DNA from: Planctomycetota bacterium
GTDB lineage: Bacteria > Planctomycetota > PUPC01 > JACPCR01
Assembly: GCA_016179685.1 (NCBI GenBank)
Contig: JACPCR010000064.1
Location: forward strand, 181,186-245,185
Direction of reading: 5' to 3'
Length of the DNA stretch: 64,000 bases
Shown: positions 13,633-54,993 of the stretch, piece after piece
Position numbering within the stretch: position 1 is the stretch's first letter
Layout of the letters: each line of letters begins with the position of its first letter
Program-made: the position numbers and the translations under genes
The notes under the pieces: model-generated
Seen by the model: the letters and a program-made list of their open reading frames with translations, nothing else
The model's database searches: none
What the model was told of the DNA's origin: nothing

Positions 13633-13663
13633 CCCGTCGCGTGGGGCTTCCCTCCGTCCCCAC

Positions 13664-14902: not shown

Positions 14903-15043
14903 GGCCGACCCCTGCTTCCGGGATTACGGGCAGATATCCGCCAGCCGCCACCGCGATTATAAGCCCGCCATGAATGGGATTCAATCCCGCCGGCGAAGCT
15001 CGAAGTGCCCCGTCAAACGAGCTTCCCATCAGGCATGGCCGGC

Positions 15044-16048: not shown

Positions 16049-16073
16049 CTGAAATACTTAGGGTAGCACTCCG

Positions 16074-16826: not shown

Positions 16827-17017
16827 CAGTCACCTGCCGGACTTGTAAGGTGAGAATTCCGACCAGATGATAGGATGAGGACACCCGCTTTACAAGATAA
16901 AGATTGCTCAGTTTGAAGCAGCGTCTTGCTCGGAACGTTCGCGGCCCCCGCTTTCCAAACCGGGACGACGTGGTTAAAGTTTCTGGTTCTTGGAGACGCT
17001 TCGAGGAGGCAGGACAC

Positions 17018-18193
17018 ATGGATGAGATTCGAGTGGGGGTGGTCGGGCTGGGAGGTCGCGGCCAGCACTGGCTGCGGATGCTTCAGAAGTTTGCCGGCTA
17101 CCGAGTGACGGCCATTTGCGATCGCCAGGCGGCTCTGCTCGAGGCGGCAAAGGCCGCCCTGACCTCCCCGGCCTCGGTGAAAACCTATGCGAGATACGAG
17201 GACCTTCTCGCCGACTCGGGCGTGGACGCGGTGGCGCTCTGCGTCCGCGCCCGCAACCAGGGCGCTCTGGCGGCCCAGGCGCTCGAGGCTGGCAAGCACG
17301 TCAGCTCGGAGGTGCCCGCCGCCCACACGCTCGAGGACTGCTGGCGCATCGTCGTTGCCGCGGAACGGACCGGCCTCGTCTACCTCCTCGGCGAGCAGAC
17401 GCGTTACTGGGGCTTCGTGGACGCTTGGCGCGACCTGGTCCTTCAGGGCCGCCTGGGCCGCGTCACCTTCGCCGAAGGCCAGTACATCGGTTTCTACGGC
17501 ACCTGGTGGTACTTCAGTGATCCCGAGACCGGCCGGTTCTATACCGTGGAGGAGCTGAAGGACCACCCGGAGGCGCGGCCCACCTGGCTGCATGAGATGC
17601 CGCCGATCCACTATCTGCCGCACGAGTTGAGCCCGATGCTGAAGATTCTGGACGATCGCGTGGTGGAGGTGACGGCGATGAGCACCCGCGCCCCGAGCTA
17701 CTCGTTCCCGGAGATCGGCCAGCCGGACATCCAGGTGGCGCTGATGAAGACGCGCAAGGACGCCATTCTGCGGCTGGCCACCGGCTACGCCCAGCCGGTC
17801 CCGAAGCGCGGCCACCACTGGTATCAGGTGATGGGGACGCGCGGGTGCCTGGAGTGGAAGCGCTCGGCCCGCGATCTGCCCAAGATGTGGCTCGCCGATG
17901 CCCAGATGTTCGACGTCGCCGAGGTGGACTGGCGCTTCGAGCGGCTCGACGCGCCTGCCGAGGCCCGTGGCAGCGGACACGGCGACGCGGATTACTACGT
18001 CCACGCCTCTTTCCGCGACGCGGTGCTGGGTCGCCAGCGCCTCGAATTCGACGTCTACCAGGCGATGGACACGGCCGCGCCCGCCATCCTCGCAGCAGAA
18101 TCCATCGACCAGGGTACGAAGCTCATGAAGGTGCCGGACTTCCGGCCCAGCGCCCTCCGGCCAGCCGGCCAGTGGCCCGCCTCCCTGGCGTGA
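17018..18193 (+). CDS. Gfo/Idh/MocA family oxidoreductase
   Basis: ORF 16904..18193; ATG at 17018 preceded by GAGGAGG; N-terminal IRVGVVGLGGRG Rossmann motif. Confidence 0.8.
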   Translation: MDEIRVGVVGLGGRGQHWLRMLQKFAGYRVTAICDRQAALLEAAKAALTSPASVKTYARYEDLLADSGVDAVALCVRARNQGALAAQALEAGKHVSSEVPAAHTLEDCWRIVVAAERTGLVYLLGEQTRYWGFVDAWRDLVLQGRLGRVTFAEGQYIGFYGTWWYFSDPETGRFYTVEELKDHPEARPTWLHEMPPIHYLPHELSPMLKILDDRVVEVTAMSTRAPSYSFPEIGQPDIQVALMKTRKDAILRLATGYAQPVPKRGHHWYQVMGTRGCLEWKRSARDLPKMWLADAQMFDVAEVDWRFERLDAPAEARGSGHGDADYYVHASFRDAVLGRQRLEFDVYQAMDTAAPAILAAESIDQGTKLMKVPDFRPSALRPAGQWPASLA

Positions 18194-39602: not shown

Positions 39603-40691
39603 GTGTTTTACGGTCTGTTCCAATCCCTCGGCCCGTGGCCGCACGACGGCCTTCTCCTCCGCGCCTTGCTGGCGGCGCTCACGGCCGCACTCCTGGGCCT
39701 CGTTGCTGCGCCGAAGCTCATCCGTAGGCTCAAGGCCCGCAAGGTCACCGATCCTTCCAAAGGCTACACGGGCCTCAACCCGGCCAGCAAACAGGGCGTG
39801 CCCATCCTGGGCGGCCTGATCATTCTTGCCGCCCTTTACCTCTCCGCACTCCTCTGGTGCGACCTGACCAACCGGATGGTCCAGGTCGCCCTGGTCTGGG
39901 GCCTGGGTTACGCTGCGCTGGGCTTCTTGGACGACTGGAGCAAGATTCGGCCCGATCAGCGCGGCCTGGGCCTGAACCAGCCGCAAAAGTACGCCGTTCA
40001 GTTCCTGCTGGCCCTTCTCTTGGGAGTCTTGTTCCTATCCCAGGCCTATCTCCCCGTGGAGCGGGCCGTCGCCGGGTCCCTCTACCTTCCCTTCACCTCG
40101 ATCTGGCGCTGGAATCTCTCGTGGGGTTACTTGGCAGTGATTGTTTTTTTTCTCATCTATGCGGCCAATGCCGTCAACATCACGGACGGGATGGACGGGC
40201 TGGCGACCTTCCCGGCGATGCTGCTGGCCGCGGTCCTCGGTCTCGCGGCCTTCATCCTCCATAGCCCGGCGACGGCATCCTCCTTCCGATTCGAGCCCGT
40301 GCCCGGCAGCGGCGAGTGTGTCGTGCTCCTGGCCGCGCTTCTCGGGGCCTGCGGCGCATTCCTCTGGTACAACGCCTATCCGGCCACCATCTTTATGGGG
40401 GACACCGGCTCGATCGCCCTGGGCGGCATCCTGGGAACGGTGGCCGTCCTGCTGAAGCAGGAGATTCTTTTCCTGATCGTCGGCGGGGTTTTCTTGATCG
40501 AGACGGCCAGCAGCTTCCTTCAGACCTACGTCGGCGTCGGTCTGCTTGGCCGGCGTCTCTTCTTCCGCGCCCCGCTCCACGACCACTGGCTCTACCAGGG
40601 CCTGAGCGAATCGAAGGTCACGCTCCGCCTCTGGCTGCTCTCCCTCCTCTTCGCCATCCTGGGCCTGGCGGCCCTGGAGCTTCGGCTCTAG
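39603..40691 (+). CDS. mraY: phospho-N-acetylmuramoyl-pentapeptide-transferase
   Basis: ORF 39390..40691; likely GTG start at 39603 just after upstream stop; motifs NAVNITDGMDGLA, YPATIFMGDTGSIALGG, HDHW closely match MraY (GT4 polyprenyl-phosphate transferase family). Confidence 0.75.
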   Translation: MFYGLFQSLGPWPHDGLLLRALLAALTAALLGLVAAPKLIRRLKARKVTDPSKGYTGLNPASKQGVPILGGLIILAALYLSALLWCDLTNRMVQVALVWGLGYAALGFLDDWSKIRPDQRGLGLNQPQKYAVQFLLALLLGVLFLSQAYLPVERAVAGSLYLPFTSIWRWNLSWGYLAVIVFFLIYAANAVNITDGMDGLATFPAMLLAAVLGLAAFILHSPATASSFRFEPVPGSGECVVLLAALLGACGAFLWYNAYPATIFMGDTGSIALGGILGTVAVLLKQEILFLIVGGVFLIETASSFLQTYVGVGLLGRRLFFRAPLHDHWLYQGLSESKVTLRLWLLSLLFAILGLAALELRL

Positions 40692-41048
40692 GAAATGGCA
40701 AAGCCAAGCAAGTTGACAGAAAGGCGTGAATCCTTATAAGGGAGTCTTATAGCTCCCGCAAATAACTGCTCTTGTGAGTGTTGGCCATAGAGGCCATAAA
40801 TCTGATATATTCTTACCTTAGATCACTTACGTGCCGATACCAGCGAGACCCGCCTGCGCCGCGGGCGCGGCAGGCAGGCGTTGGCATTTCCAGTTAGGTT
40901 TTTGCGGCTGCTCTTAGGTTGTCACTTCCCCGCGCCCGCCTCCCATAGTCCCAACGGGATCCCTCCCGCCGGGATAAGTTCGGCGGGCACCCGGCGGAGA
41001 TCTTTCACGGTCATGGAAGCGCTTTGCTTCCGCATCGGGAGTTGCAAT

Positions 41049-41444
41049 ATGGCTGACTCTGAAATTCTTCCCGAGGGGAAAGTAGCTTCATCGGGAAAAC
41101 ATGGGGAAGTCAAGTTTGACTACATCAAGAGCAATCATTTTCGGGTAATCTATGCTGACGGTGTCTGGGGTGGTCTAACTCCACGTCTCAAGATGCAGAT
41201 CACATTTTGGAATGAACGCCACCCCATCCCCAGGCAAATCGTTCAGGAACTCACGGAGAAAGAACAGCCGGGTAGAGAATTAAGGCGAGAATCCAGAGAG
41301 GCAATCGTTCGAGAACTCGAGGCTTCGGTCATCATGGACCTCGAGGTGGCCCGCTCTTTCTGCAAGTGGCTCACCGAAAAGATTGAGAAAGCTGACCAAC
41401 TCTTGGCCCAACACAAAGAATCAGAAAAAAAGGAGAATCGTTGA
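41049..41444 (+). CDS. hypothetical protein (island cassette gene 1)
   Basis: within ORF 40881..41444; ATG 41049 preceded by GGGAG; lower-GC region; C-terminal predicted helical/charged tail; no family recognised. Confidence 0.5.
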   Translation: MADSEILPEGKVASSGKHGEVKFDYIKSNHFRVIYADGVWGGLTPRLKMQITFWNERHPIPRQIVQELTEKEQPGRELRRESREAIVRELEASVIMDLEVARSFCKWLTEKIEKADQLLAQHKESEKKENR

Positions 41445-42040
41445 TGCCACCGGCGAGTGCAATGTCCGATGTTATTCGCGCAGGTTCTCACTGCACCAGC
41501 ACTCTTGACTTGAGAGTGCCCCTTCCAGGAGCCAGTCAACTAGAATATGCAGCGTGCTTCCGAAATCCTATTGCCCTGGGTGAAGAGATTCCTTCAGAAT
41601 CCCCATCGGATTGGCCTGTGCCGTTGGACGAGGCGACCGTGGATGCCCTGGGTGAACATAATCTTTCGGAGTTCCCATCGGATTTGACATTTTCCGAACC
41701 TTGCAGCGAGCGAGATCTGGAAGATTATCTCAGAAGTCTCGAAGATGAGGGGTTTATTCCCTCCTCGATGAGGAGGAGCGCTCTGAAACTGTGGAAAACT
41801 TTAGAGCATCTTTCAGGTCATTGTTTGACGATTCCGGGTGCTGCTCCAGGCCCTGACGGGAAGTTATTCCTCGTTTGGGGTGAGGGCGAGCACCACTTCG
41901 AGGCCGAGTTGATCCCTGACAACCCGATAGAGTTCTTCTACATGAACCGCGGAACCAACGAGACTTGGAGTGGAGAGGCTGCTGATGAGAATGAGGTATC
42001 CCACGAAATCGTAGAGAAGCTGATGTCTCTTTGGGGGTAG
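41444..42040 (+). CDS. hypothetical protein (island cassette gene 2)
   Basis: ATG 41444 overlaps upstream stop (TGATG), AAGGAG 9 nt upstream; acidic protein; no family recognised. Confidence 0.5.
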   Translation: MPPASAMSDVIRAGSHCTSTLDLRVPLPGASQLEYAACFRNPIALGEEIPSESPSDWPVPLDEATVDALGEHNLSEFPSDLTFSEPCSERDLEDYLRSLEDEGFIPSSMRRSALKLWKTLEHLSGHCLTIPGAAPGPDGKLFLVWGEGEHHFEAELIPDNPIEFFYMNRGTNETWSGEAADENEVSHEIVEKLMSLWG

Positions 42041-42044
42041 CCTC

Positions 42045-42533
42045 ATGCCCGCAGTGAAGCGAGGGGTGGAGGGCGAGCCCTTACCCGGCGAGGAAGTCGT
42101 TTTCCGTCTCTGGCGGAAAGGAAAGGATGGCACGCGCGATGAATTGGTGGCCGCTTTTGAGTTGTCAAGCGATGAGAGGCGGTCACTACGCCCCACGTTG
42201 TCAGTTTTTGCTGAGGGGCTCACTTCCCATGAACAGGCATTCGAAATTACTGGGAAGAATTCGTTGAAGCGACTCGTGCTCCGAATGCAGGTCTGCGAAA
42301 TTCGGAAGATCGACTTGGTGCCTCCTGACCTGAATTTTCGTGGTCTCGATGTCATCTGGGTCCAAGCCAAACTGCAGGAGAATGGCCGAGAAGTCCCGGA
42401 CGAAAGACCGGGTGCTGAAGGTCATGCTGGAATTTTGGGACTCAGTAGCCCTCCAAACAAGAACTCTAGAAAAGTACTTCGAGTGAAACTTGCCGAATTA
42501 GCCTACCACAACGATCCCTTTGACAAACGTTGA
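42045..42533 (+). CDS. hypothetical protein (island cassette gene 3)
   Basis: 162-aa ORF 5 nt after previous stop; no family recognised. Confidence 0.5.
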   Translation: MPAVKRGVEGEPLPGEEVVFRLWRKGKDGTRDELVAAFELSSDERRSLRPTLSVFAEGLTSHEQAFEITGKNSLKRLVLRMQVCEIRKIDLVPPDLNFRGLDVIWVQAKLQENGREVPDERPGAEGHAGILGLSSPPNKNSRKVLRVKLAELAYHNDPFDKR

Positions 42534-42638
42534 CGGCGAGTGCAGGTACCCGGCAATCACGTCCGATGAGTCCCATCCTCTGATCGAATACCCGCACCGA
42601 GAATCCAGTCAGGTTCTGCAGATAGCGCAGCTTCTTGT

Positions 42639-44681
42639 TTACTCCAGAATAAGCGATTTCGTCAGAAGCTTCTCGATGTAGGTGGCCTTGTCTTCCTTCT
42701 GGAAAAGCACATGGTGCTTCTCGAAGGAGGCCTTGTTCGTCCCGCCCTCCCACCAAGTGACTTCCTCCCGGCGGGTACTTGAAAGGATGAAGGAATTCAG
42801 GATGACGGCTGGATCGCCTATCCGGCCCTCCAACTCTTTGATCGTGGCGTGGAAACGAATCTTCGGGTCGTTCTTGCCCTCAAGATTCCGGATGCCTTTG
42901 GGATCAATGAAGGTGATGTGCTGGCGGCTGCCCGATAGAAGCCAGAGGATGAAATCCGGGTAGAAGTTCCCCGCCTCGAAGAACCCGATACCCCGGCCCC
43001 GGCTCTGGTTGCGTAACAGGTAGAGTTCCTTCTCCTTGAAGAAGCCCTTGTTGCTGTCGAAGAAGGAGCGCAGGTCGAGGACGAATTCCCTTTCGCCTTC
43101 GTTCAGGGAAACCGGTCGGACCTCGATGTTGTCGCCCTTGAGGTAGAGGAGAGGGCGGTAGAGGTGCTGGCCGAAGCAGATGCCGCGAAACCGGTCGTGC
43201 TCGATGTCCCGCCATTCGCCCCGCTCCACGGCCTGCTTCAGTTCCTTGAGCTTGGCGATGATTTCCTTCTCGGATTCGTCAATCAGAATGCGGTATTCTT
43301 CGATGAAGTTGGGGTCGTCCGGGCGCAGTTCCCGATACTCTAGGTGTGGATTCTCATACTCCGCCTTCCGGTAATAGTAGTAACGCTCGCAGTATTTCTT
43401 CAGCAGGGCGATCGCCACCTCTTCCCATGCCCGAACCCTGCCGAAGCGGGTCAGGCTTAGCTCCGTTTCGGGAATGTAGAGCGTATACCAGTCCGACCGA
43501 GCCAGCAGACTTCGCACCTGCTCCCTGGACAGGCTGAGGTTATGCCAGGCCTTCTCGCTCTTGAAGTGCTCAAGCTCGAAGAACACGCGGTCGAAATCCA
43601 TGAAAGCCAACTGGACGTCCCGCAGCTTCCCTTCGTGCTGTTCGGCAGCGCCCTGACTCGTTCCCGCGCCGCGGCTGATGTGCGCTTGGACTCTCGGATA
43701 CCAGTCCAGGACGACCGGATACCTGACCAGATGTTCCGGCGGCACGTCGAGCGCCGGCTTGGGTCCGTCCCGCTTGAAATCAATGCCGTCTTTCAGCTTG
43801 AGAGTCTTGAGCTTCGTCTGGCCGAGGTTCTTCAGGACGGGCAGGACAAACTCCATCCGATCTTCGTTGGACGGCAGCCCCTCCTCTTCGAGGTATTCCT
43901 TGAACTGCCGCATGTAATCGGCCCGGATGCCGAAGATGTGAATGTCGATGATTTCCACGGATTTCCCGGCGAACAGCCCACGCCCGTCCTTCGAGAACAT
44001 TTCCGCCTGAAGCCCGGACAGCCCGAATTCCTCCAGGTGTTGCCTCGATAGCCCTTCGTTGGGAGTCAGGAGAATGATGCGATTGAGGTTGCGTTCCTTG
44101 CCGTGCTGGGCCAGGTAGTGTCGATACTGAAGCAGGTTGACGTGCATGAGCAGCGTCTTGCCCGACCCAGTGGCGCTCCAGAAGGCCAGCTTATTGAGCT
44201 GCTCCGGCTCGTAGGGCTGAATCTTGTCCCCCTCTGTTTTGTCCTCGTTGAAGCGCCTGACGAACGCGTTCAGGTCATTGAGCAGGGTATCCGGATTCTG
44301 GAAGTAACGGTCGAGGTAAATCTCCGTGAACAGCAGCGAGAGGTATTGGAAATACTTCGGGTAGAGGTTGTTGGCCTGGTGGCGCTTCTCGGTGATGACT
44401 CGCCAGTGGCGGACAATGTTTTGGTCGTATTGGAGAAGCAGGTCCGAGGGAAGCTGCTTGCGCTGGAATAGGCGGGCTTTGAGGACGTGGTGATAATGGC
44501 TGACGCCTTCGCCGTCGAACCCCTCCAGGTTTGGGCTTTTCAGCTCCTCGGCGAGCTGGCCAATGCGTTCGACCTCGAACAGGTCGAGCCTCCACTGGGC
44601 GAGGACGAGGCGCTCGTCGAATTTGAGGCGGGTCTCGCGGCGGGTTGGGCCGGCTCTCCTTCGGGCGGTTCCTGAAGGCAT
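42639..44681 (-). CDS. restriction-endonuclease-like P-loop NTPase (Res-like: helicase-type ATPase with C-terminal PD-(D/E)xK-like motif)
   Basis: 680-aa ORF; Walker A FWSATGSGKT; degenerate motif II-like IIDIH (no DExH); C-terminal YPDFILW...TFIDPKG fits PD...(D/E)xK nuclease pattern; last gene of the mod-containing minus-strand array. Confidence 0.55.
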   Translation of the reverse strand: MPSGTARRRAGPTRRETRLKFDERLVLAQWRLDLFEVERIGQLAEELKSPNLEGFDGEGVSHYHHVLKARLFQRKQLPSDLLLQYDQNIVRHWRVITEKRHQANNLYPKYFQYLSLLFTEIYLDRYFQNPDTLLNDLNAFVRRFNEDKTEGDKIQPYEPEQLNKLAFWSATGSGKTLLMHVNLLQYRHYLAQHGKERNLNRIILLTPNEGLSRQHLEEFGLSGLQAEMFSKDGRGLFAGKSVEIIDIHIFGIRADYMRQFKEYLEEEGLPSNEDRMEFVLPVLKNLGQTKLKTLKLKDGIDFKRDGPKPALDVPPEHLVRYPVVLDWYPRVQAHISRGAGTSQGAAEQHEGKLRDVQLAFMDFDRVFFELEHFKSEKAWHNLSLSREQVRSLLARSDWYTLYIPETELSLTRFGRVRAWEEVAIALLKKYCERYYYYRKAEYENPHLEYRELRPDDPNFIEEYRILIDESEKEIIAKLKELKQAVERGEWRDIEHDRFRGICFGQHLYRPLLYLKGDNIEVRPVSLNEGEREFVLDLRSFFDSNKGFFKEKELYLLRNQSRGRGIGFFEAGNFYPDFILWLLSGSRQHITFIDPKGIRNLEGKNDPKIRFHATIKELEGRIGDPAVILNSFILSSTRREEVTWWEGGTNKASFEKHHVLFQKEDKATYIEKLLTKSLILE

Positions 44682-44687
44682 CGGTGG

Positions 44688-45013
44688 CTAAGGTGATGGA
44701 AGAGGAATTTCAACATACTGGCCGGGTTTCACGGTCTTCAGTGTTTGCTCGATGACGGACAGAAGGCCGGCCACCATCGGAACCTGGTTGCTGGGAAGAA
44801 CCACCACTGCGAGCTTTATTGCGGCAAGGTTCTGCTGATAGCGTAAGTTCTTGTCCGTGGTCATGAAGACGTCAAACTCGTTCTCCGCTCGCCTGAGCAA
44901 TTCGCCGTTCTTCAGCCCGCTCCACAAACCATTTCCTGAACGGTTCGGATTGCCAGATCGGGAAGTCGCGTCTTCACCAGCCGCGGCACGCACTCATCAA
45001 GTAAGATTCTCAA
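44688..45013 (-). pseudogene. DUF5615-like (PIN-like) toxin-type gene, apparently frameshifted
   Basis: N-terminal ILLDECVPRLVKTRL (DUF5615-like) is read in one frame from TTG ~45013, the remainder (...WSGLKNGELLRRAENEFDVFMTTD...) in ORF 44688..44993; frames differ by 1 nt near 44930. Confidence 0.4.
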
Positions 45014-45255
45014 TTCGACCTACCCAGGCGCAGAAGGGTGGCTTTGGAGAATTCAAGGACTTGTAACGCCTGCTCTCGAGTCACGGAAGGGAAGTTCTCC
45101 AGAAATTCTTCCAGGGTCAGGCCCGCCTCGAGGTTGTCAATGAGGGCTTGCACCGGGACCCGCGTCCCCCGGAAAACGGGCGCTCCGCTGACGATTTCGG
45201 GATCGATGGTTATCGGCAACTGCTCAAGCTCTGCCTCTTCAATGACCAGTGACAT
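45010..45255 (-). CDS. DUF433 family protein (antitoxin-like partner of DUF5615)
   Basis: ORF 45010..45297; start at ATG 45255 with GAAGGAGG upstream; GAPVFRGTRVPVQALIDNLEAG matches DUF433 pattern from memory. Confidence 0.6.
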   Translation of the reverse strand: MSLVIEEAELEQLPITIDPEIVSGAPVFRGTRVPVQALIDNLEAGLTLEEFLENFPSVTREQALQVLEFSKATLLRLGRSN

Positions 45256-45318
45256 CGTGGGCCTCCTTCGTGAGGGTCGGGAATCGACGAGAGCCATTTT
45301 ACTCCAGATTGCCTTCCC

Positions 45319-48300
45319 CTACACGTCCTTCACGTCGAACATCAGCCGCTGGAATTCCTCCTCAATTAGCCGGACTTTCCAGGTCATGTCCTCACGGCGC
45401 AGGTTTTCCAGGTGGTTGTCGCCGTTCACGTAAATCAGGTCGAACTCCTGGTCCCGGGTGTTGTACTTCTGCTTCCGGAAAAACTCGTCCAGGTCCTCGT
45501 TCGACTTCCCTGCCTTCCCGTCGGGAGCAGACAGGTCCTTCAAGCTCCGCCAGATGACCAAAACCTTCTCGCCCTGGGGATTCGTGCCTTGGACGACCCG
45601 GAAGCCCCGGATAACGTCCACGTGCATTACCCGGAGGCCCAGCAGGTAGTTGAAGGTCTCGACCAGGTCCACGGTTGTGGGCCGAGTCTCGCCCGCGCTG
45701 CCGGTGGCGATGTTGAGCTTGTAGAAGAAGGGGTCTTCGAACGCGGCGATGTTCAGCAGCGACGCGCTGCCGCGGCTCTCCACGTCCAGCATATAGGAGA
45801 GGAGGTAGTCCTCCCGGACTCCGTCGTTGGCTTCCAGGAGGGCGGCCTGCAAGTCGGTGCGTTTCAGTTCCAGGTTGTTGAGGGTGTCTTCGTAGGATTT
45901 CAGCCGGAGGTATTTGAAGAGGTGGCTGGAGCCTTCGCGGCTAACCGGCTTGCCGTCTTTCCAGTCCTTGGAGTAGATGACCTTCTGGATGCGTGGCTTG
46001 AGGACGGTATTGAAGTATTCGGCCATCTCGACGAGGATATACTTGCGGCCCCCCCCGGGTCTCGCGCGTCATCGCGATTCAGGTTGATGACGGCATGGCC
46101 CGTGGTGCCGGAACCGGCGAAGAAGTCCAAGACCAAGGAGTCCTCCGCGTCCGAGCAAATAAGCACGCAATCCTTGACAGCGTGTAGGGATTTGGGGAAG
46201 TCGAATGGACTCAGCGGACCAAACATTTCCTTCAATTCTTTCGTTCCATTGTCCCGAGCAGAATAGGCCGGGCTATCCCACCACGTGCGAGGCAGCGACC
46301 CTTCTTCGCGTAAGTACTTCCGTTTGTAAACCTCGTACTTGCCATCTCGCTTCATCACCTTCATTAGACAGACCTCTGCGATCGCCCTTTGAACGCCGAA
46401 GTTCCAGACCTTTTCAACGCCTGAATCGTCAATGGGCCAAATAGCGACTTCGCCGGGACGGGTTTTCTCGTTGATCCTCCAACTTTTACTGGTTTCTAGC
46501 CATTCCATCCCGGGGATCCGCTGTGCGTGATGCGCCTCGTCGAAGTAGATCGGAAAGAATTGCTTCGGTCGGTCTGGTCTGTCCGATCCCCTGCTGCTCT
46601 TCCTGAAGTTCTCCCATTCGAACGGTTTTCCCTCCTCATCTACTTGGTCGTACCTTTGTCGCTGAGAGTCACTGTGAGGCAACCGACCAACTTCGGAAGA
46701 CTGTGCAAGTTTCGAGTAGAACAGCGCGTACTCGTGGTTAATGGCGAACCCCTTCGTCGTAGCGCGACCGGACGGGTTGTTGCGAATCACAACGGTCGCC
46801 ATGTAGTTCTCATCAAAGAAAACACGATCTAACACAGACCTCAGGCGGTGGGATTCGTAGTCATCTATCGTCACGCACAGCAGCCCGTCGCAAGACAGGA
46901 CTTCACGTGAGAGTGCAACTCTATCTTCGACGAGGGAAATCCAAGTCGAGTGCTTGTACTCGTTCTTATACAGAATCTCGCTCTCTATCGCGTTATAAGG
47001 TGGATCGATGTAGATACACTTAATCTGTTCCCTATAGCGTGTTTCTATTAGGTTGAGCGCCTGGAAGTTCTCCCCGTGCACCAGCAGCCCGTCGGTATTC
47101 TCGTCCAGGTCCTGGATGCTGGCCAGCAGGCGGTCTTTGAACTCCGGGTCGAAGAAACGGGTGTCCAACACCAGGAAGGGATTAGCCTTCAGGAACTCCA
47201 CAGTGAGCGGCTTGGAATATTTCGGGGTGTGCAGGTCGCCCTGGATTTCGTCAATGGCGAAGAGGCGGACCCATTCCTCCCGCTGGGCGTCGCTGGCCGC
47301 GATTTCTACGTATAGCTCCCCAGGGACGCGGTCGAGCGTGATGCAGTAGTTCGTCTCGACCACGAACTTCTTCTTGAGCCAGAGCTTCTTCTGGAAGTTC
47401 TCCAGTTGCTCCAGGAAGGCGATGATCTTGTGGGCGATGCGGCGGAGCGCACGGATTTTGCCGAGATACTGCTCCACGCGGGGCGCGGACTCGCTTTCGA
47501 TGTCGTCCAGGTGCATGACCTCGTTCTTGATGTAGAAGTCCAGCTCCCGGCGGAGGAAGCCGCCCAGGTCCTTGTGGATGAAGTAGTCGAAGGTGTTGCG
47601 GGCGGTGTAGTCCGTGAGGTGCTTTTCGAGAAGGGTGCGGTCGGGATTCTTTTCGGTGGGGGCGGGGGTGGAGAGTTCCTCAATCCATTCTTTCGCATTG
47701 GCGGCTTGTAGTGCCCTCTTTAGAGGGTTGCCTTCGTCTGCACTACCCGCATCGAAGAGACCCGCTGTCCCAGCGGGATCCCTATGGGAAAGCGGCACTA
47801 CGAACCCGGAAGCGATGGCGGCGTTGTGATCCGACTGTTTCCGTTTCTGCGGGTCCGGCTGGTAGAGGAAGTGGATGAATAGCTCGTCAGGCTTTATGTC
47901 CACGGGATTCGATTCGCAGAGCATGAACCGGCGCTCCTTGTCGGGCCCGGCTTTCTGGTTGTCCTTCTCGGTGTCGGCTTCGACGAGCTTGAAGTGGACG
48001 CGGCGGCCGGAGGGGAGCTTGAAGGTGTAGTCCCGGAAGTATTCGGACGACTTGACGTAATACTGGTCGTGATTGGCCCAGTGGAGCTTGACCTCCTCGC
48101 CTTCGTAGGGGATGGCATAGACGCCTTCCTTGTAGCGGCGGAGGGAAAGGAAGTCGCCCTCGTGGTAGTAGCGGCGGAAGAAGTTGGTGAGGTCGGAGAA
48201 GATTTCCTGTTCGAGGGCGGCGGGGTCGCCGGCGGACTGGTATTTGGCCTTGAGTTCCTTGACCTTCGGGCTGGTTTCCGGGTCGATGCCAAGTCCTTTG

Positions 48301-48527
48301 GCCTGTTCGATGGCTTCCTTGAGTTGGGACTCGATGACGCGCTGGTCGCCGGACTGGTGTTCGCTTAGGGCATTGCGGACTTGCGGGAGGAGGTCTTTGT
48401 CGAGGAAGCGGGTAATCTCGTCCCGCTTCTGGTTCATGATGCGGTAGATGCCGAAATCGAGGTCGGCCTGGTCGAGCTGGAAGAGCTCGGCGAGCAACCG
48501 CCTCAACTTCTCGAGGTTTTGAGACAT
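45319..48527 (-). CDS. beta-class (N6_N4_Mtase-type) DNA methyltransferase, type III Mod-like, with ~500-aa N-terminal extension; reading frame interrupted at a C8/G8 tract
   Basis: ORF 45900..48527 contains motif IV IYIDPPYN and, ~300 aa later, motif I LDFFAGSGTTGHA (order IV then I = beta class); C-terminus continues in ORF 45319..46026 if the G8 run at 46049-46056 is read as G9 (...NLNRDDARDPGGGRKYILVEMAEYF...). Confidence 0.7.
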
Positions 48528-48546
48528 TGCGACAAACCCTCTGCGT

Positions 48547-49650
48547 CTATTCGTTGTGCTCGAGGAGCACGAATTTCCGTTTCAGGCCGTTCAAACAGTC
48601 GTGGCGGAGATGCCCCTCGTGCTGAAGCCGCCCGACGACGATACCGGGAGCGATACCGAGTTGACGGGCGAAGGCCGAAATGTCCTTCTCGCTTCGGTAC
48701 TTGCCCGTGGTTACCAGCTCGTCGTACTTGGCTTGCGGGATCAGCATCTTCACCGCGAAACGGTCCGCCTCCGTTTCCTCCATGCTCTTCGGCTTCTCCT
48801 TGTCGTCGACGAAGGCGGCCCTCTTGCCGTGCAAGAGTATGTGGCCTGCCTCGTGGAAGAAGCTGAACCAGAAATGGTCGTCGCTCTTATGCCGAAGGCT
48901 GAGCATCAGGAGGGCCTTGTCCTTGCTCAGCCAGCGTGTCGCGCCGCTGAGGTGCGTGCCCGGCAACTCCGCTACGAAGACGACGGCTACGCCGGCGTCG
49001 CAACAGAGGGCCTTCATCTTCGGCTCGAAGATGGCAGGCTCCGCGTTGGTGACCGACTGAATCTCCCGTAGCGCCGCGAGGAACCGTTCTTTGTCGTAGC
49101 GCGAGCAGACAACTTCCCGCGCCCACAGCTCCCCGATCCGTAGCCACGCCGTCAGGGACTCGGGAGCGCTCTTGAATGCAGGGGAATGCCTATAGGCTAC
49201 GTTGAGACCGGCGTAGGCTTCTTGCCAGGCCTCCACGCTTCCCACACCGAAGAAAGCAAGAAGGGAGGCAACGAGCTCGGCTGGGTCATCGGTTTTGGGA
49301 ATCAACCGGCGTTCAGCAAGCTCCTTGATGGGGAACTTCCTTGCCCACGCTTCCTGGCCCTCAAGCGCGGACCGGTCGGCAGCCTTGGCCGCGTGGAGCC
49401 GGAACAGACCATCCAGGTTGTTCCAGACCGCAGCGGACACGCCAAGGACCCTCTCCAGTTGGATGGCAGTCTCCGACGTGACGTTAGCCTTTCCAGTGAT
49501 GATTTGGCTAACCGTCTTCTCGCTCAGACCGCACCGTTGGGCCAGGTCCGTCCCCTTCATGCCCTTCGCTTCCAGGGTCTCCTTCAAGATCTCTCCCGGG
49601 TGAACGGCGTAGTCGGGATGGAATTCGTTCCTATCCGTGCTAAGTGTCAT
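48547..49650 (-). CDS. HigA-like HTH (XRE family) antitoxin domain fused to ImmA/IrrE-family metallopeptidase domain
   Basis: 367-aa ORF; N-terminal HPGEILKE...LSEKTVSQIITGKANVT HTH; C-terminal FFHEAGHILLH HExxH zinc-peptidase motif (COG2856-like). Confidence 0.7.
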   Translation of the reverse strand: MTLSTDRNEFHPDYAVHPGEILKETLEAKGMKGTDLAQRCGLSEKTVSQIITGKANVTSETAIQLERVLGVSAAVWNNLDGLFRLHAAKAADRSALEGQEAWARKFPIKELAERRLIPKTDDPAELVASLLAFFGVGSVEAWQEAYAGLNVAYRHSPAFKSAPESLTAWLRIGELWAREVVCSRYDKERFLAALREIQSVTNAEPAIFEPKMKALCCDAGVAVVFVAELPGTHLSGATRWLSKDKALLMLSLRHKSDDHFWFSFFHEAGHILLHGKRAAFVDDKEKPKSMEETEADRFAVKMLIPQAKYDELVTTGKYRSEKDISAFARQLGIAPGIVVGRLQHEGHLRHDCLNGLKRKFVLLEHNE

Positions 49651-49985
49651 CGGTGGTAGTCCTCCAGGCTCAGGATGCGGATAGTGGTGATCCGGGTAAG
49701 GTCGATGCCCCCGTCAGGTTTGAGCGGCAGGTCGGCCTCAGCGGGCCCAAAAACGAGACGGAAGGGATGTTTGAGGTCAACGGCGAACTGCCCCTTCCTG
49801 TTCCCCGTCAACTCGTGTCGGCGCGTGGGCGGCACGTGGGGGACCTCGGCGAGTGTCGGGGCAGCTCGAAGGAAGGCCATGCGCTTCATGATAACCTTCC
49901 CGTTCTCTGCGCCGTACTCGCGGCATAGTGCCTTCTCGGAATTGAAGGTCTTAGCCATCTTGTCGTTCCCGAACAGGATGTTCAT
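49647..49985 (-). CDS. HigB-like (RelE/ParE superfamily) toxin
   Basis: 112-aa ORF overlapping downstream gene by 4 nt; resembles plasmid-maintenance-system-killer/HigB toxins (KALCREYG...LTGNRKGQFAVDL...FRLVF). Confidence 0.6.
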   Translation of the reverse strand: MNILFGNDKMAKTFNSEKALCREYGAENGKVIMKRMAFLRAAPTLAEVPHVPPTRRHELTGNRKGQFAVDLKHPFRLVFGPAEADLPLKPDGGIDLTRITTIRILSLEDYHR

Positions 49986-50050
49986 CCCCGCCTCATTATA
50001 ATCAGTTTACCTAAAAGGTAAAGCTTTTTCTCGCGTTCGCACCAGGAGTC

Positions 50051-51543
50051 TCAGGTGACCGACCATCGGATGGTGAAGAGATGCTCCACAGTTGTTCGCT
50101 GGGTCATTCGCTTTTCGAGCGCGGCGATGAGCGTGTCCCGCTTCGCCAGAATCTCATCTTCGAGGTCGAAAATCTTCTGCCGCTGTTTCCGCTGCTTCTG
50201 CTCCAGGTCCCGGATTTGGACCTACAACTGATGCTGCTCTTCAGTGGTGGCAGACATCCGGGCCTGCCGGTTCAGCGCCCGGATCTGCGCTTTGGTGTCC
50301 GCCAACTCCTTTTCCGCGGCCAGAACTTTATCCTCCGCCCATTTCTCCAGCCGTTCCCGCTCCTCCTGGAGGAAGCGGTTGTTCATCTCAAGGGAGCGGC
50401 TGATGGTGGCTTTGACGTGCCGCTGGGCTTCCTTGCCGAGCCGGTCTTTTATTTCCTGCGGCTGGCTTTCCAAAGGGGAAGCCTTGCCATTGCAAAGGAA
50501 AAGCTTCTCGCAGGTTTCCTGGTTCACGGGCCGGGCGGAATCGTCCAGCGCGGAGAAGAGGAGGTATTCCTCCCGGTCGAAGGATTCGATGACGAGCCGC
50601 TGAAGCACGAGCCAGCCGGAGTTGCCTTTGAGGGCCTCCACTACGGAAAGCCGGGTGGGATGGCTGGTGATATCGAAGGCGACTTCCGCGAGCGGGGTCG
50701 GGCAGGAGCGGCCTTCGCTGAGCGCGTGCTGGCCGAGCGGATGGGAGAGGCGATAGAGGAACTCGCCGGAAACGTTCTGCTGGGACTTGGAGATGAGGTG
50801 GTATCGGCCGGGCCGGACGCCATCGCAAGGGGCGGCGTGAAGGTCGAAGTGAAGCGCCTGGTCGTCAAAGCTGGCCGCGTTCCGCAGGATAAACTTGGTC
50901 AGCGCCCAGAAGAGCTTGCCGAAGCGGTCGAGCTGCTCGCGGGCGCTGTCGAGCTGCACTCTCAGGCGGGCGTGGACCTCTTCATCGAAGTGTTCGAGGA
51001 GGATGCGGCGGGTCTCGTCGATCCGGGACTTGATGGAGGATTCGAGTTCGGCGCGGAGCTGCTGGAACGCGGCTTCGATCTCGCCGGGCGTCCGGCACTG
51101 CTGATAGATGGCGAGGATGCGCTTTTCAAAGTCCACGCCGGATTCGATGGTGCCGAGGACTTCGTCCGACGCGCCGAAGACGCCCGTGAAGAGGTTGAAC
51201 TTATCCTGGAGTTCGAGCGACCACTGCTTGCGGATGGATGCCGGGCAGATGACAAGGAGTCGGCGGCGCTGCTCTGTCCAATGCTGTGGCACAGGACAAG
51301 CCCCGCCTCGATGGTCTTGCCCAAGCCGACCTCATCCGCCAGGATGACGCCTTTGGAGATGGGTGAGCGGAGGGCAAAGAGCGCGGCGTCAATCTGGTGG
51401 GGGTTGAGGTCCACGCAGGCGTCGAACAAGGACCGGGAGATGCGGTCCACTCCGGTTGTCGGCCCCTGGCGGGTCAGTTCGTAGGCATAGTAGCGGGCGT
51501 GGTAGGGAGTGCTCACGACCGGGCCAATCTCCGGGGCTATCAA
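50051..51543 (-). pseudogene. SNF2-family helicase remnant (frameshift, in-frame TAG, helicase core apparently missing)
   Basis: N-terminus in ORF 50962..51543 has SNF2 motif I (ILADEVGLGKTIEAG); continuation LVICPASIRKQW is in a different frame (ORF 50222..51292); reading continues in frame through TAG at 50222-50224 for 56 more codons; no DExH or motif VI seen. Confidence 0.5.
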
Positions 51544-51684
51544 GACAAGTGGGCCTGTTTCTGAAGCCGTGAAGGCGGCCTCCAGGACAGCATTCTATCC
51601 ATTTGTCTTTGCGCGTTCCGACCGAGACAATCCAATCGGACACAGGACGCATTTCGAACACGCCGTGTAAAAAATCCGGGCCAG

Positions 51685-52350
51685 GTGGTCCCCATTTGGA
51701 ATCGCTGGGTGCTTCAAGTGGAGATTCATCCGGCGGCTGGCCGCACCTGTCCCGCCGCGCTTCGCTCCACTCTGCGTTCCGCCCCGAATGTCATCGCGCT
51801 CGGAGCGATACGGGACCCGGAATCTCTGGCCCTTTGCCTGGAAGCTTCTCTCATGGGCCATCTGGTCCTGGCGGTTCTGCAAGTCGAAGACGCAGCGGCG
51901 GCGCTCCAGCGCATGGTTGAAATGTCGGGCGACCCACTCGTGGTGGCTGATGCAACGAAGCTGGTGGTCTCGCAGAGATTGGTGCGGAAGCTATGCACCC
52001 GATATTCCCGGGAAGAGCCGCCCGGGGATGAGCTTCTCGAGTGGGCCAGGAGCGCGGCGGAGAGCGGAGGCCTGGATTGGGCAACAGCCTCGAAACGCTT
52101 CCGCTCTGCCACGGGGTGTCCTGAGTGCATGAATACGGGATACCGTGGCCGGAACGTCATCGCCGAGGCGCTGGAGGTCACGCCCGGTATCCGGGCCGCG
52201 CTCCGTGAGAGAGCGGCGACCGGTCGTCTTCGGGCCGTGGCCATCGAACAGGGTATGATCTCCTTCAGCGCCCATGGGATTCTGAAAGCGTCGCCAGGCT
52301 TCACCACCTTGGGCGAGATCGCCCGTCACTCGGGCAGCTCATTCGTTTGA
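51685..52350 (+). pseudogene. C-terminal fragment of GspE/PilB-type secretion ATPase
   Basis: 221-aa ORF lacks Walker A/B but retains C-terminal features (PNVIALGAIRD, GHLVLAVLQVED degenerate His box, GCPECMNTGYRGR zinc-knuckle region). Confidence 0.45.
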
Positions 52351-52491
52351 GCCCCAAGAAGCAGCAGGAGGATTGCCAAGCTCCAATGCCTGCCTAGCCC
52401 GACAGCGCTGGATTTTGGCGAAAGTCGTTGGAGTGAGCGCTTGAACTTCTAGATTTCGCCTCCCTGCCATGGGGGCAGGTTCGGGAGAGGT

Positions 52492-52521
52492 CTCAGAAGT
52501 GCGGGTGCACTTTCGAGCTCG
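52492..52521. repeat. REP-like palindrome (short, imperfect), core GAAGTGC-GGGT-GCACTTT
   Basis: CTCAGAAGTGC gggt GCACTTTCGAGCTCG ~100 bp upstream of E1 gene. Confidence 0.6.
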
Positions 52522-52620
52522 TGCCCAGCACGACTTTCGCTCCCTGGCGCATTCTGCTAAGATTTGGAATAGGGGCACGCGATCGGAATCCCGAAATGGA
52601 GACTCCCTGAACCCTGCGCC

Positions 52621-54993
52621 ATGGTCCTTCAGATCGATAGCTTGCCCGTCGCCGAGCCCGGACACCTGACGTTCCGGCCCATTCCGGTCTTCCAGAATTC
52701 CTTGTCGCTCGAGCAGGCGCTCGAACGGAATCTGCTGACGCCGGCCCGCGCCCTCGAGCTGCTCGAGCAGATGCGGACTGTCCGGGCATTCGAGGAGATG
52801 ATTCTGACGTTGCGTGCGGGCGCGTACGAGCCCCTGAAGGGCTACGAGTACCGGGGTCCGACGCATCTTTCGATCGGGCAGGAGGCGACATCGGTGGGGG
52901 GCTGCGCGGCCATCGGGCCGGAGGACTACATCACCAGCACGCACCGGGGCCACGGCGACGGCATCGCCAAGGGCTTCAGCGCCATCACGGCCATGCCGGA
53001 CGAGGGTCTGCGGGCGCGGCTCGGGCTGGGGAATGCGAGTGCGGCGACTCGGCCGGAGCTGCTGGATCGGGCGCTCGAGGATCATCTCTTCCGGACGATA
53101 GCGGAGCTGTTCGGCAAGGAGGCGGGCTACTGTCGGGGCCGGGGCGGCGGCATGCACATCGCCGATTTCAGCGTGAACCATCTCGGCGCGAACGCCATCG
53201 TCGGCGGCAGCACCGGCATCGCCGCGGGGGCGGGCATCAGCAGCCGATACCGCCGGTCCGGCCAGGTGGCCCTCGCCTTCGTGGGCGATGGGGCCTATAG
53301 CAACGGCATCACGCTCGAGTCGATGAACCTCGCCAGCATGGCCCAGTTCTCGAATCCGAAGCTGACGGACCATCCCTTCGGAGTCCCCACGGTCTTCCTA
53401 ATCATCAACAACCAATATGCCATGACCGGGCAGCAGCAGGGCGAGATCAGCGGGGTGGACTACCTGGCCCGCCGAGCCGCGGGATTCGATCTCGACGGGC
53501 TGCACGCCGAGGTGATCAATGGGATGGATGTCCTGGCCGTGTTCGACAGCATTCGCCGGGCGGCCCAGCTTTGCCGAGAGGGTCATGGTCCCGTCGTCCG
53601 CGAGCTGGTGACTTACCGCTACTACGGCCATTCGCTGAGCGACCAGGGCTCGGAATATCGCCGGAAGGAAGAGGAGAAGGCATGGAAGGAGATCGATCCG
53701 ATTCCGGCCCTGGAGAAGCAGATTCTGCGGCTGGGCCTGGCGACGGAGGAAGGGTTGGCGGCGTTGCGTGCCCGCGTGCAGGCGCGGCAGGACCGCGCGG
53801 CGGTCCGCGCGGCGGAAGCGCCGGAGCCGGACGTGCGTGAGTTGACGCGCTACGTCTTCACGGAACGGCGTGAGGCGCACGTGCCCGAGCCGTTCCGCCA
53901 GGTGAAGACGCTGTCGCCCGCCGTGCGCTCCAAGCGCGACAAGGACGGCCAGATCACCTTCAAGGAGGCGGTCCGGGAGGCGCTCATGGAGGAGATGCTC
54001 CGGGACCGCCGAGTCCTCTTCTACGGCGAAGACGTCGCCGATTACGGCGGCGCATTCAAGGTCACCAAGGGCCTCCTCGAGATATTCGGCCGGGACCGCG
54101 TCTTCAATACCTCCATCTCCGAGGCCGGGATCGTGGGGACCGGCGTCGGCTGCGCCATGACGGGGCTGCGGCCCGTCGTCGAGCTCATGTATTCCGACTT
54201 CGAGTTCCAGGCGAGTGACCAAATCCACAACCAGGCCGCCAAGTGGAGCTACATGTCCGGCGGGCAGACCTCCGTTCCGCTGGTGATCCGGACCTCGCAG
54301 GGCGCGGGCAAGGGCTACGGGGGCCAGCACTCCCAGGCGCTCGAATCGCATTCCACCCATACGCCGGGCCTGAAGGTCGTCGTTCCCTCCACACCCTACG
54401 ACGCCAAGGGACTGCTCAAGACGGCCATCCGAGACGGCAACCCGGTCCTCTACGTCGAGAACCAGAGCCTCTACAACCTGAAGGGGCAGGTGCCGGAGGA
54501 GGAATACCTTGTCCCGTTCGGCGAAGCCCGCGTTCTGCGCCGCGGCCAGCACGCGACGATCGTGGCCTGGTCGCTCCTCGTGCACGAGGCCATCAAGGCC
54601 GCGGACGAGTTGGCCCGGGAATTCGAGATCAAGGTGGAGGTGATCGATCCGCGGACGCTTTGCCCGCTCGACCTCGACACCATCGTCGAATCCGTGCGAA
54701 AGACCGGGCGACTCCTGGTGGTTTCCCAGGCCTGCCGGACGGGCAGCTTTACGGGCGAGATCGCCGCCCGCGTCCAGGAAGCGGCATTCGATGACCTGGA
54801 TGCCCCGATCGCGCGCCTCGGCTCGGCTGACGGGATATCGCCCCAATCTCACGTTCTCGAAAAGGCCTACCTGCCGAACGCGACGTCCATCGTCGCCGCG
54901 GTCCGGGCGCTGACTCAAGGCCTCTCGGTGGGACAGGCACGGTCCGGCGAGCGCACAGAGCGGCTACAGGTTCACCGCTCGGCTGACACTTGA
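52621..54993 (+). CDS. thiamine-diphosphate-dependent 2-oxoacid dehydrogenase E1 component, fused alpha and beta subunits
   Basis: 790-aa ORF; N-terminal half has E1-alpha TPP-binding region (GDGAYSNG ... YRYYGHS); C-terminal half has E1-beta features (transketolase-like pyrimidine-binding and C-terminal domains). Confidence 0.8.
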   Translation: MVLQIDSLPVAEPGHLTFRPIPVFQNSLSLEQALERNLLTPARALELLEQMRTVRAFEEMILTLRAGAYEPLKGYEYRGPTHLSIGQEATSVGGCAAIGPEDYITSTHRGHGDGIAKGFSAITAMPDEGLRARLGLGNASAATRPELLDRALEDHLFRTIAELFGKEAGYCRGRGGGMHIADFSVNHLGANAIVGGSTGIAAGAGISSRYRRSGQVALAFVGDGAYSNGITLESMNLASMAQFSNPKLTDHPFGVPTVFLIINNQYAMTGQQQGEISGVDYLARRAAGFDLDGLHAEVINGMDVLAVFDSIRRAAQLCREGHGPVVRELVTYRYYGHSLSDQGSEYRRKEEEKAWKEIDPIPALEKQILRLGLATEEGLAALRARVQARQDRAAVRAAEAPEPDVRELTRYVFTERREAHVPEPFRQVKTLSPAVRSKRDKDGQITFKEAVREALMEEMLRDRRVLFYGEDVADYGGAFKVTKGLLEIFGRDRVFNTSISEAGIVGTGVGCAMTGLRPVVELMYSDFEFQASDQIHNQAAKWSYMSGGQTSVPLVIRTSQGAGKGYGGQHSQALESHSTHTPGLKVVVPSTPYDAKGLLKTAIRDGNPVLYVENQSLYNLKGQVPEEEYLVPFGEARVLRRGQHATIVAWSLLVHEAIKAADELAREFEIKVEVIDPRTLCPLDLDTIVESVRKTGRLLVVSQACRTGSFTGEIAARVQEAAFDDLDAPIARLGSADGISPQSHVLEKAYLPNATSIVAAVRALTQGLSVGQARSGERTERLQVHRSADT

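Follow-up and report, generated by a model that had tools for sequence, protein, structure and literature searches.

A broken SNF2-Mod-Res restriction operon with embedded toxin-antitoxin-type modules in a probable defence island of a Planctomycetota bacterium

Introduction

In a Planctomycetota bacterium (GenBank assembly GCA_016179685.1, contig JACPCR010000064.1), a block of about 11-12 kb between mraY (39603-40691) and a gene for an E1 dehydrogenase (52621-54993) carries an array of co-directional minus-strand genes that resemble parts of restriction and toxin-antitoxin systems. Does this array represent a defence system of undescribed architecture? All coordinates given below refer to the window, the whole stretch of 64,000 nucleotides (64 kb; positions 181,186 to 245,185 of the contig) that was analysed. 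The original prediction, made from the letters of the window without database searches, regarded the block as a composite, partly decayed defence-type island, and its array of toxin, HTH-peptidase fusion, DNA methyltransferase and Res-like ATPase as a single architecture that could not be recognized.

Here we describe that the block is probably an acquired defence island, in which a broken restriction operon of the SNF2-Mod-Res type carries toxin-antitoxin-type modules in its junctions. Five of the nine genes from res to a gspE fragment (42.6-52.4 kb) are disrupted, and three cassette genes to the left are intact. The island as predicted is thus supported, with a decay that exceeds the one noticed before. 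The apparent new architecture turned out to be a common restriction operon that is dead in this copy, and it is not to be pursued as a new system.

Results

The SNF2-Mod-Res operon family

Homologues of the window methyltransferase (Mod) and Res-like protein (Res) are abundant, more than 8000 for Mod and more than 7000 for Res being detected at E <1e-10. The best of them share about 60% identity with their window counterparts and yet originate from several phyla, with lengths of about 1025 amino acids (aa) for Mod and about 1060 aa for Res. Intact operons in the order SNF2 (about 960 aa), Mod (about 1010-1070 aa) and Res (about 1060 aa), with spacers of 10-30 nucleotides (nt), were identified in metagenome-assembled genomes (MAGs) of Anaerolineales (loci L087 and L088) and Phycisphaerales (L089 and L090). 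Eighty metagenome loci, each with Mod as the anchor, were surveyed: the SNF2 gene was located directly upstream of mod in 40 of the 52 loci with at least 3 kb of upstream sequence, and res was found downstream of mod in all 40 loci with at least 5 kb of downstream sequence. The same operon is carried by the E. coli plasmid pEC316_2 (NZ_CP018955.1, 29496-39248), in which its genes are annotated as HTH regulator, SNF2-related protein, DNA methyltransferase and DEAD-DEAH box helicase, and altogether 27 plasmid records, 11 of them from Klebsiella, were matched by the Res family. These intact relatives indicate a conserved, tight SNF2-Mod-Res operon, the junctions of which often hold unrelated cargo, in place of the single unrecognized architecture that had been proposed for the window.

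Further features were observed around the relatives. The operon of pEC316_2 (L181, 2602-12354) lies on a conjugative IncF plasmid with IS30 and IS26 on either side. At L087, the SNF2-Mod-Res operon is directly followed by a gene for an OLD-family ATPase/TOPRIM protein and a UvrD helicase gene (13241-17054), and a tyrosine integrase gene and a small HTH gene are located upstream; we read this gene pair as Gabija-like by domain content and the L087 locus as a textbook defence island. The mod gene of L086 (4764-8229) is called as three open reading frames (ORFs) of 137, 407 and 334 aa, and the mod matches of L160 (7742-13782), L101 (3280-8502) and L159 (2-4032) are divided into two or three pieces over 4-6 kb. 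These interrupted copies may represent more cases of decay or insertions inside mod.

The mod gene of the window

The window mod gene (45319-48527, minus strand) is a pseudogene for a type III-like beta-class adenine methyltransferase (PF01555, 8e-27). A single ORF of about 1070 aa had been predicted, but a frameshift at a run of eight G residues (G8, 46049-46056) divides the gene into two ORFs, of 875 aa and 235 aa, the change of frame falling within CCCGGGGGGGGCC. Both pieces were matched by the PADLOC model MTase_III (PDLC03646; 5e-180 for the 875-aa piece and 1.9e-53 for the 235-aa piece), and after addition of one G, a Mod of 1069 aa was obtained that is collinear end to end with 11 homologues. 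Against the Protein Data Bank (PDB), the Mod core matched the type III Mods Mbo45V (7dsu, 3e-54) and EcoP15I (4zcf, 1e-33) and also 6k0w, in agreement with a beta-class N6-adenine methyltransferase domain homologous to known type III Mods. Both catalytic motifs are readable, IYIDPPYN (DPPY, motif IV) preceding DFFAGSGTT (FxGxG, motif I), and the frame is broken just past motif I, before the region through motif III is completed. Neither the conserved RKYILVEM segment nor the C-terminal 235 aa are part of the 875-aa product, which is presumably inactive.

Besides the G8 run, the window contains no G/C homopolymer of 8 nt. Phase-variable type III mod genes are known in Haemophilus, Neisseria and Helicobacter, and the run could accordingly be a contingency tract of a phasevarion, with Mod switched ON in a G9 state and OFF in the G8 state, the methylase being kept for epigenetic regulation in the presence of an inactive Res. 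The coincidence of the frame switch with this run, the restoration of a collinear ORF by one extra G, and the inactivation of res with the rest of the mod frame remaining clean are all in line with such a switch. We nevertheless consider it unlikely, because the tract is lineage-specific: within the same 120 nt, the longest homopolymer is at most 5 nt in 78 mod homologues, even in those of 60-67% GC, and a conserved contingency tract was rejected by this survey. In addition, the tract adjoins an insertion of four codons (ARDP) that is missing from all 11 aligned homologues, and the frameshift is explained equally well by an insertion of 11 nt. The run had the length G8 in the window as well as in both run-assemblies covering the site (L082 and L083, see below), and a database of 5.8 billion proteins contained the 875-aa product only, with no near-identical full-length Mod that might represent the ON allele. 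The neighbouring SNF2 and DUF5615 genes are pseudogenes as well, a sign of general decay.

The res gene of the window

The res gene (42639-44681, minus strand) encodes a protein of 680 aa that was matched by the PADLOC model REase_III (PDLC03654, 1.7e-114). When aligned with five full-length homologues, it lacked 380 aa, in frame and with clean edges, from VEIIDIH to IFGIRADY, corresponding to a junction at 43937/43938, and by tblastn the gene was recovered as two pieces in one frame. The deletion takes the sequence from motif II (DEGH) through the end of the helicase core (motifs II-VI), leaving the superfamily-2 core I-VI incomplete and the Pfam ResIII match confined to residues 155-225. Walker A (motif I), motif Ia and the C-terminal region with an invariant PD...DPK are retained; P575-D576 and D593-P-K595 are invariant in the alignment and PD-(D/E)xK-like by sequence only, with no sequence match in PDB. 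Among the 120 best homologues, the short form is unique save for an identical copy (P0001), the others being 1033-1097 aa in length. No detectable sequence match was found between the Res family and EcoP15I Res or any PDB chain. The family of the 680-aa Res-like ATPase had thus been recognized correctly, but members of this family have about 1060 aa, and the allele in the window has undergone an internal deletion.

The SNF2 gene of the window

The first gene of the operon is an SNF2 (DrmD-like) helicase pseudogene (50051-51516, minus strand). In tblastn with the intact SNF2 proteins of L087 and L089, residues 1-77 were located at 51516-51286, residues 77-116 in another frame at 51286-51167, and then residues from about 546/571 to 956 in the sequence down to 50054, which points to a frameshift and to the loss of about 455 aa by deletion. 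A premature in-frame stop was found at 50222-50224, with 56 further homologous codons beyond it, so that the remnant carries at least three independent lesions. The PADLOC model DrmD (PDLC02619) matched both SNF2 fragments of the window, and an intact relative at 7.7e-203. Assignment to Hma was rejected, since the match to HmaA is far weaker than that to DrmD, and Mod and Res match only restriction-modification methyltransferase and type III REase models. An SNF2 remnant had been predicted at this site and is indeed present; it is not a separate leftover, but belongs to the same operon as the methyltransferase and Res. With all three core genes broken, both restriction and methylation are presumably lost.

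Authenticity of the lesions

As the window derives from a MAG, the lesions could in principle be artefacts of assembly or sequencing that conceal an intact system: homopolymer frameshifts are a classic type of error, and chimeric joins could imitate internal deletions. This is highly unlikely. Logan assemblies of five runs (SRR12113432, -426, -401, -390 and -429), each covering a part of the block and together spanning all lesions, are 100% identical to the window over all covered stretches. The lesions of mod, DUF5615 and res are each contained in two of these independent run-assemblies, the SNF2 frameshift in two, and the SNF2 deletion and stop in up to three. Lesions repeated across two or three run-assemblies are not artefacts of one assembly, although all five runs appear to sample the same population. 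Moreover, the deletions of res and SNF2 lie in unique sequence with junctions devoid of repeats, and NCBI lists the 680-aa Res but no Mod protein, which is consistent with a pseudogene call as judged from the source lists.

Toxin-type modules embedded in the junctions

In the window, the junction between SNF2 and mod is 1.5 kb long and holds a HigB-like gene and a gene for a HigA-type HTH-M78 fusion, and the junction of 0.64 kb between mod and res holds a DUF433 and a DUF5615 gene. The HigB-like gene (49647-49985, minus strand) is an intact ORF of 112 aa overlapping the next gene by 4 nt. For this putative toxin, proposed already in the original prediction, the matches are weak: PF05015 at E 0.037, below the cutoff, and as the sole PDB match the GraT 'killer protein' (6f8s_B, E 0.018), the partner chain of which (6f8s_A) was matched by the adjacent HTH. 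No PADLOC model matched the HigB-like protein. The adjacent gene (48547-49650, minus strand) is also intact and encodes a HigA-type HTH (HTH_3, 1.4e-11) fused to an ImmA/IrrE peptidase (Peptidase_M78, 1.2e-9) with HEAGH present. It scored 59.9 bits against a cutoff of 47.7 for HigA (TIGR02607), matched HigA and GraA in PDB, and was matched over residues 15-346 by the PADLOC model PD-Lambda-2_B (PDLC03982, 7.9e-38; profile positions 57-377 of 402). A sigma70-like promoter match (TTTACC-16-TATAAT, 10/12 positions) is located just upstream of the HigB-like gene at 49995-50022 on the minus strand.

The DUF433 gene (45010-45297, minus strand; PF04255, 8.1e-21) is intact and encodes an antitoxin-like partner of the DUF5615-like (PIN-like) toxin, the gene for which (44688-45019, minus strand) is a pseudogene. 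Due to a frameshift near 44925-44931, its N-terminal ELRILLDECVPRLVKTRLPDLAIRTVQEM and the remainder do not share one reading frame. The uncorrected ORF gave no Pfam match, and after correction of the frame, PF18480 was matched across the junction at E 4.7e-4, with 20.4 bits against a cutoff of 23.8. The predicted DUF5615 identity is thereby recovered just below the cutoff, for a gene that is itself broken.

Such inserts are widespread in the family. Those of more than 250 nt were found in 23 of 70 Mod-Res junctions and in six of 50 SNF2-Mod junctions, reaching up to 4.7 kb and being almost all co-directional with the operon. The cargo sampled includes Fic/DOC (four loci), AAA_21 AbiEii-like ATPases (four loci), and RhuM together with an HTH protein, and in other junctions DUF3800, GmrSD_N, AIPR, an HTH protein and a sigma factor.

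It is scarcely credible that the minus-strand array works as an undescribed defence system made up of an HTH-peptidase sensor, a methyltransferase, toxin-antitoxin modules and a short Res-like nuclease. Its genes are co-directional and tightly packed (gaps of 6-68 nt or an overlap of 4 nt), the deletion of res is in frame and keeps Walker A and PD...DPK, and the HigA-M78 and HigB-like ORFs are intact; however, each component maps to a known module, the short Res stands apart from its best homologues, Mod lacks everything past motif I unless its frame is corrected, the SNF2 gene has three independent lesions and the DUF5615 gene is frameshifted, and this particular combination is repeated in no surveyed locus.

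Limits, composition and flanks of the block

A block of about 12 kb, with lower GC content at its left end, had been proposed between mraY and the E1 gene, and windowed composition bears this out, with values of 0.53-0.58 against 0.63-0.64 in the flanks. The GC content is 0.528 at 40692-42638 and 0.579 at 42639-50053, and that of the flanks is 0.625 and 0.641. The tetranucleotide distance from the rest of the window, determined for 4-kb segments, is largest at 40-48 kb (22-25 compared with 11-19 elsewhere). The left junction (40692-41048, no strand) is AT-rich, GC dropping there from 0.63 to 0.50-0.54. At the right edge, a 5'-truncated gene fragment for a GspE/PilB-family ATPase (51685-52350, plus strand; PF00437 T2SSE, 4e-35) covers only positions 187-370 of the 370 positions of the T2SSE profile. 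Since the SNF2 remnant (0.622) and this fragment (0.641) are host-like in GC, the compositionally deviant stretch is limited to about 40.7-50 kb. Searches with profile models also agreed with the predicted identities of the beta-class N6_N4 methyltransferase, DUF433, HTH_3 plus Peptidase_M78, the Res-like ATPase, the SNF2 remnant and the C-terminal T2SSE fragment.

The absence of an integrase, a transposase and a tRNA gene, noted before, was likewise confirmed. No tRNA or tmRNA gene was detected within the window, and Pfam and PADLOC scans together with a repeat search of the block gave no integrase, tRNA or border direct repeats. As the block is tiled by annotated ORFs with gaps of less than 360 nt, no space is left for an integrase or transposase. 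No significant direct repeat was found at the block borders and no att-like repeat at the left junction, and no Rfam family matched within the block. The promoter scan of 12.2 kb gave two sigma70-like matches, the one upstream of the HigB-like gene and another at 40782-40811 on the plus strand, upstream of the cassette described below; both are sensibly placed, and their total is not above that of shuffled sequences.

Both flanks are resident genes on the plus strand. On the left, mraY was matched by TIGR00445 (254 bits against a cutoff of 192) and is a 362-aa gene in the Logan assemblies; on the right, the fused E1 alpha/beta dehydrogenase gene contains E1_dh, Transket_pyr and Transketolase_C. 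By a scan of genome contigs, relatives of E1 were found in Planctomycetota/Brocadiia MAGs at up to 72% amino-acid identity, and tblastn in the vicinity of E1 in these relatives detected neither island nor left-flank genes and no local synteny. Look-ups of the exact E1, HigA-M78 and MraY proteins returned only contigs identical to the window, all with the island, and no empty site. The neighbour of mraY is a HEAT-repeat gene, and the upstream genes covered here, the HEAT-repeat gene and a short-chain dehydrogenase gene, are not cell-wall genes. Further low-GC patches were observed in 1-kb windows outside the block, at 7501-9000 (0.51-0.57) and 31001-32000 (0.55-0.57), and may be additional acquired DNA as far as composition tells.

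The c1-c2-c3 cassette

The left part of the block (41049-42533, plus strand), which has the lowest GC, contains three intact ORFs: c1 (41049-41444, plus strand; 131 aa), a member of a large family, c2 (41444-42040, plus strand) and c3 (42045-42533, plus strand; 162 aa). Searches of Pfam, NCBIfam and PADLOC with c1-c3, as with the HigB-like gene, were empty or below threshold, and c2 in particular matched no family of Pfam or NCBIfam. A conserved cassette of three genes, a-b-c, occurs in unrelated contexts (L171, L172 and L174); its genes b and c are homologues of c2 and c3, and its gene a encodes a TIGR04255-family protein. By BLASTP, c2 matched the b genes over its C-terminal region of about 110 aa at E 3e-15 to 2e-22. 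Only about 20 homologues of c3 were found. The predicted structure of c3 is confident (pLDDT 91), and Foldseek against PDB gave nothing significant, so that its assignment as a candidate protein of ADP-ribosyltransferase fold is tentative. Its conserved residues R21, S53 and E125-G-H127 would fit an R-S-E-type site, and it has a conserved RPGAEGH motif.

Within c2, an imperfect direct repeat of 41 nt (83% identity; 41572-41612 and 41644-41684) was noticed, by which the peptide ALGE..xSExPSD is repeated. A c1 homologue at L176 (4001-5128) is followed by a DUF7689 gene and not by a b-c pair, and genes of the c1 family may pair with variable downstream partners.

The cassette probably arrived separately from the operon. 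It could be an undescribed toxin module, with c3 as a divergent effector of ADP-ribosyltransferase fold, c2 as neutralizer or sensor, and c1 in place of the usual TIGR04255-family gene, and the SNF2-Mod-Res operon could separately form a distinct restriction class with junctions serving as landing pads for defence cargo; we regard this combined proposal as possible but rather doubtful. The b-c pair is in any case a rare, portable module lacking annotation, with a possible protein of ADP-ribosyltransferase fold.

Discussion

A model for the origin and decay of the island

The following course of events would account for the locus. Foreign DNA may have entered a Planctomycetota genome in the interval from mraY to the E1 gene, and this acquisition, or a later deletion, may have truncated a gspE-like gene. 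The main cargo would be the three-gene restriction-modification operon for an SNF2 helicase, Mod and Res, with two small toxin-antitoxin-type modules embedded in its junctions. By analogy to type III systems, host sites would be methylated by Mod, which would also direct Res to DNA that is unmethylated, and Res, as an ATP-driven motor with a PD-(D/E)xK nuclease, would translocate or diffuse along DNA and cut it where unmethylated; the SNF2 protein may act as an accessory translocase or motor. Cleavage by type III enzymes depends on ATP and on a pair of unmethylated sites in inverse orientation, and their Mod carries out hemimethylation. In type III systems such as EcoP15I, Res relies on Mod for DNA recognition. 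If the same applies here, loss of Mod would not be suicidal, which fits a decay that went unpunished. The death of the host operon also means that any functional coupling with the embedded cargo is gone. The HigB-like/HigA-M78 pair, DUF433 and the c1-c2-c3 cassette are intact and therefore possibly active, as far as their reading frames tell, and the HigB-like/HigA-M78 pair may continue to work on its own, in toxin-antitoxin fashion or by abortive infection.

Several observations weigh against an acquired island with a dead restriction operon. The Res family matches neither EcoP15I Res nor a solved structure, so that a 'type III' mechanism is only an analogy. The deletion of res is exactly in frame, for which the chance is 1 in 3, and the shortened Res with its Walker A and nuclease domain might keep some activity. 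The frameshift of mod sits in a homopolymer and is in principle reversible. Foreign acquisition is suggested by composition alone, the E1 of the closest genome being 72% identical and non-syntenic, and within the window the insertion is not accounted for by any mobility gene, tRNA or att repeat. Finally, literature searches, limited in reach, gave no named or described three-gene system of SNF2 with type III Mod and Res.

The SNF2-Mod-Res family itself is very large and occurs on clinical IncF plasmids, and no characterization of it was found; the operon of pEC316_2 offers a tractable model. As about one-third of the junctions between Mod and Res carry defence-type cargo, the family is also a good substrate for discovery by 'guilt-by-embedding'.

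Comparison with known systems

Among the known systems, the type III restriction-modification systems (EcoP15I, EcoP1I and Mbo45V) share several features with the window operon. Mod is a beta-class N6_N4 methyltransferase with a core matching the solved type III Mods, the PADLOC models for the window Mod and Res are both labelled Type III, and mod lies upstream of res in the same direction, the window pair being set 638 nt apart by embedded cargo. In Res, a superfamily-2 ATPase is accompanied by a PD-(D/E)xK-like motif at the C-terminus. The Mod of this family has a length of about 1050 aa, compared with 567-644 aa for the solved Mods, in which counterparts are missing for both its N-terminal extension (about 470 aa) and its C-terminal domain (about 235 aa). 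The Res family also differs by lacking a sequence match to EcoP15I Res or PDB, most family members have a third gene upstream for an SNF2 helicase, and in the window copy all three core genes are inactivated. Judged by its Mod, the core of the window operon is type III-like, and its lesions would keep this copy from being a functional member of the class.

Class 1 DISARM is similar in that the best PADLOC model for the SNF2 protein is DrmD and that the SNF2 gene adjoins a DNA methylase gene, but the methylase here is of the PF01555 type III-like kind. Neither DrmA (YprA-type helicase) nor DrmB (DUF1998) nor DrmC (PLD) was found in the window or beside the intact relatives, and DISARM was therefore rejected.

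The embedded modules can be compared likewise. In PD-lambda-2 (Vassallo et al. 2022, PMC9519451), an A plus B arrangement, of which B is the toxic component, is joined by a third gene, a relative of a P4 antitoxin, on which defence depends. In the window, a HigB-like gene is similarly followed by one that encodes a HigA-like HTH with an M78 domain fused to its C-terminal side; the fusion corresponds to component B, and the HigB-like gene fits component A by its position and 4-nt overlap, with weak sequence matches. The third gene is missing in the window, as mod begins 19 nt past the fusion gene. In the predicted toxin-antitoxin pair of DUF433 (COG2442) and DUF5615 (PIN-like, COG4634), the DUF433 gene is followed by the DUF5615-like gene in the window as in L009; the window DUF5615 gene differs in being frameshifted, and its product remains below the Pfam cutoff even when corrected.

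Genes inserted in restriction loci are familiar from PrrC in EcoprrI and from the 'restriction-linked ORFs' of type I loci. Defence genes embedded in multi-gene immune systems, with Hma, BREX, DISARM and type I restriction-modification systems as hosts, are described in the accessible part of a recent preprint (Payne et al., bioRxiv 10.1101/2024.01.29.577857). As there, small unrelated defence or toxin genes are located co-directionally between the genes of a restriction operon, and the cargo of the relatives (Fic, AbiEii-like ATPase, RhuM, AIPR and GmrSD_N) belongs to the usual repertoire, but SNF2-Mod-Res was not found among the hosts in that part of bioRxiv 10.1101/2024.01.29.577857.

The closest counterparts are the intact SNF2-Mod-Res operons of pEC316_2, L087 and L089. 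Their genes are of full length and lie 10-30 nt apart, and a small HTH gene often precedes the operon, whereas the window copy is devoid of the SNF2 and Res helicase cores, the Mod frame and the upstream HTH gene, and has cargo in both junctions. The remnants in the window are nevertheless about 52-82% identical in amino-acid sequence to L087 and L089, pEC316_2 Res being 40% identical to L087 Res, and the same three families are present in the same order and orientation.

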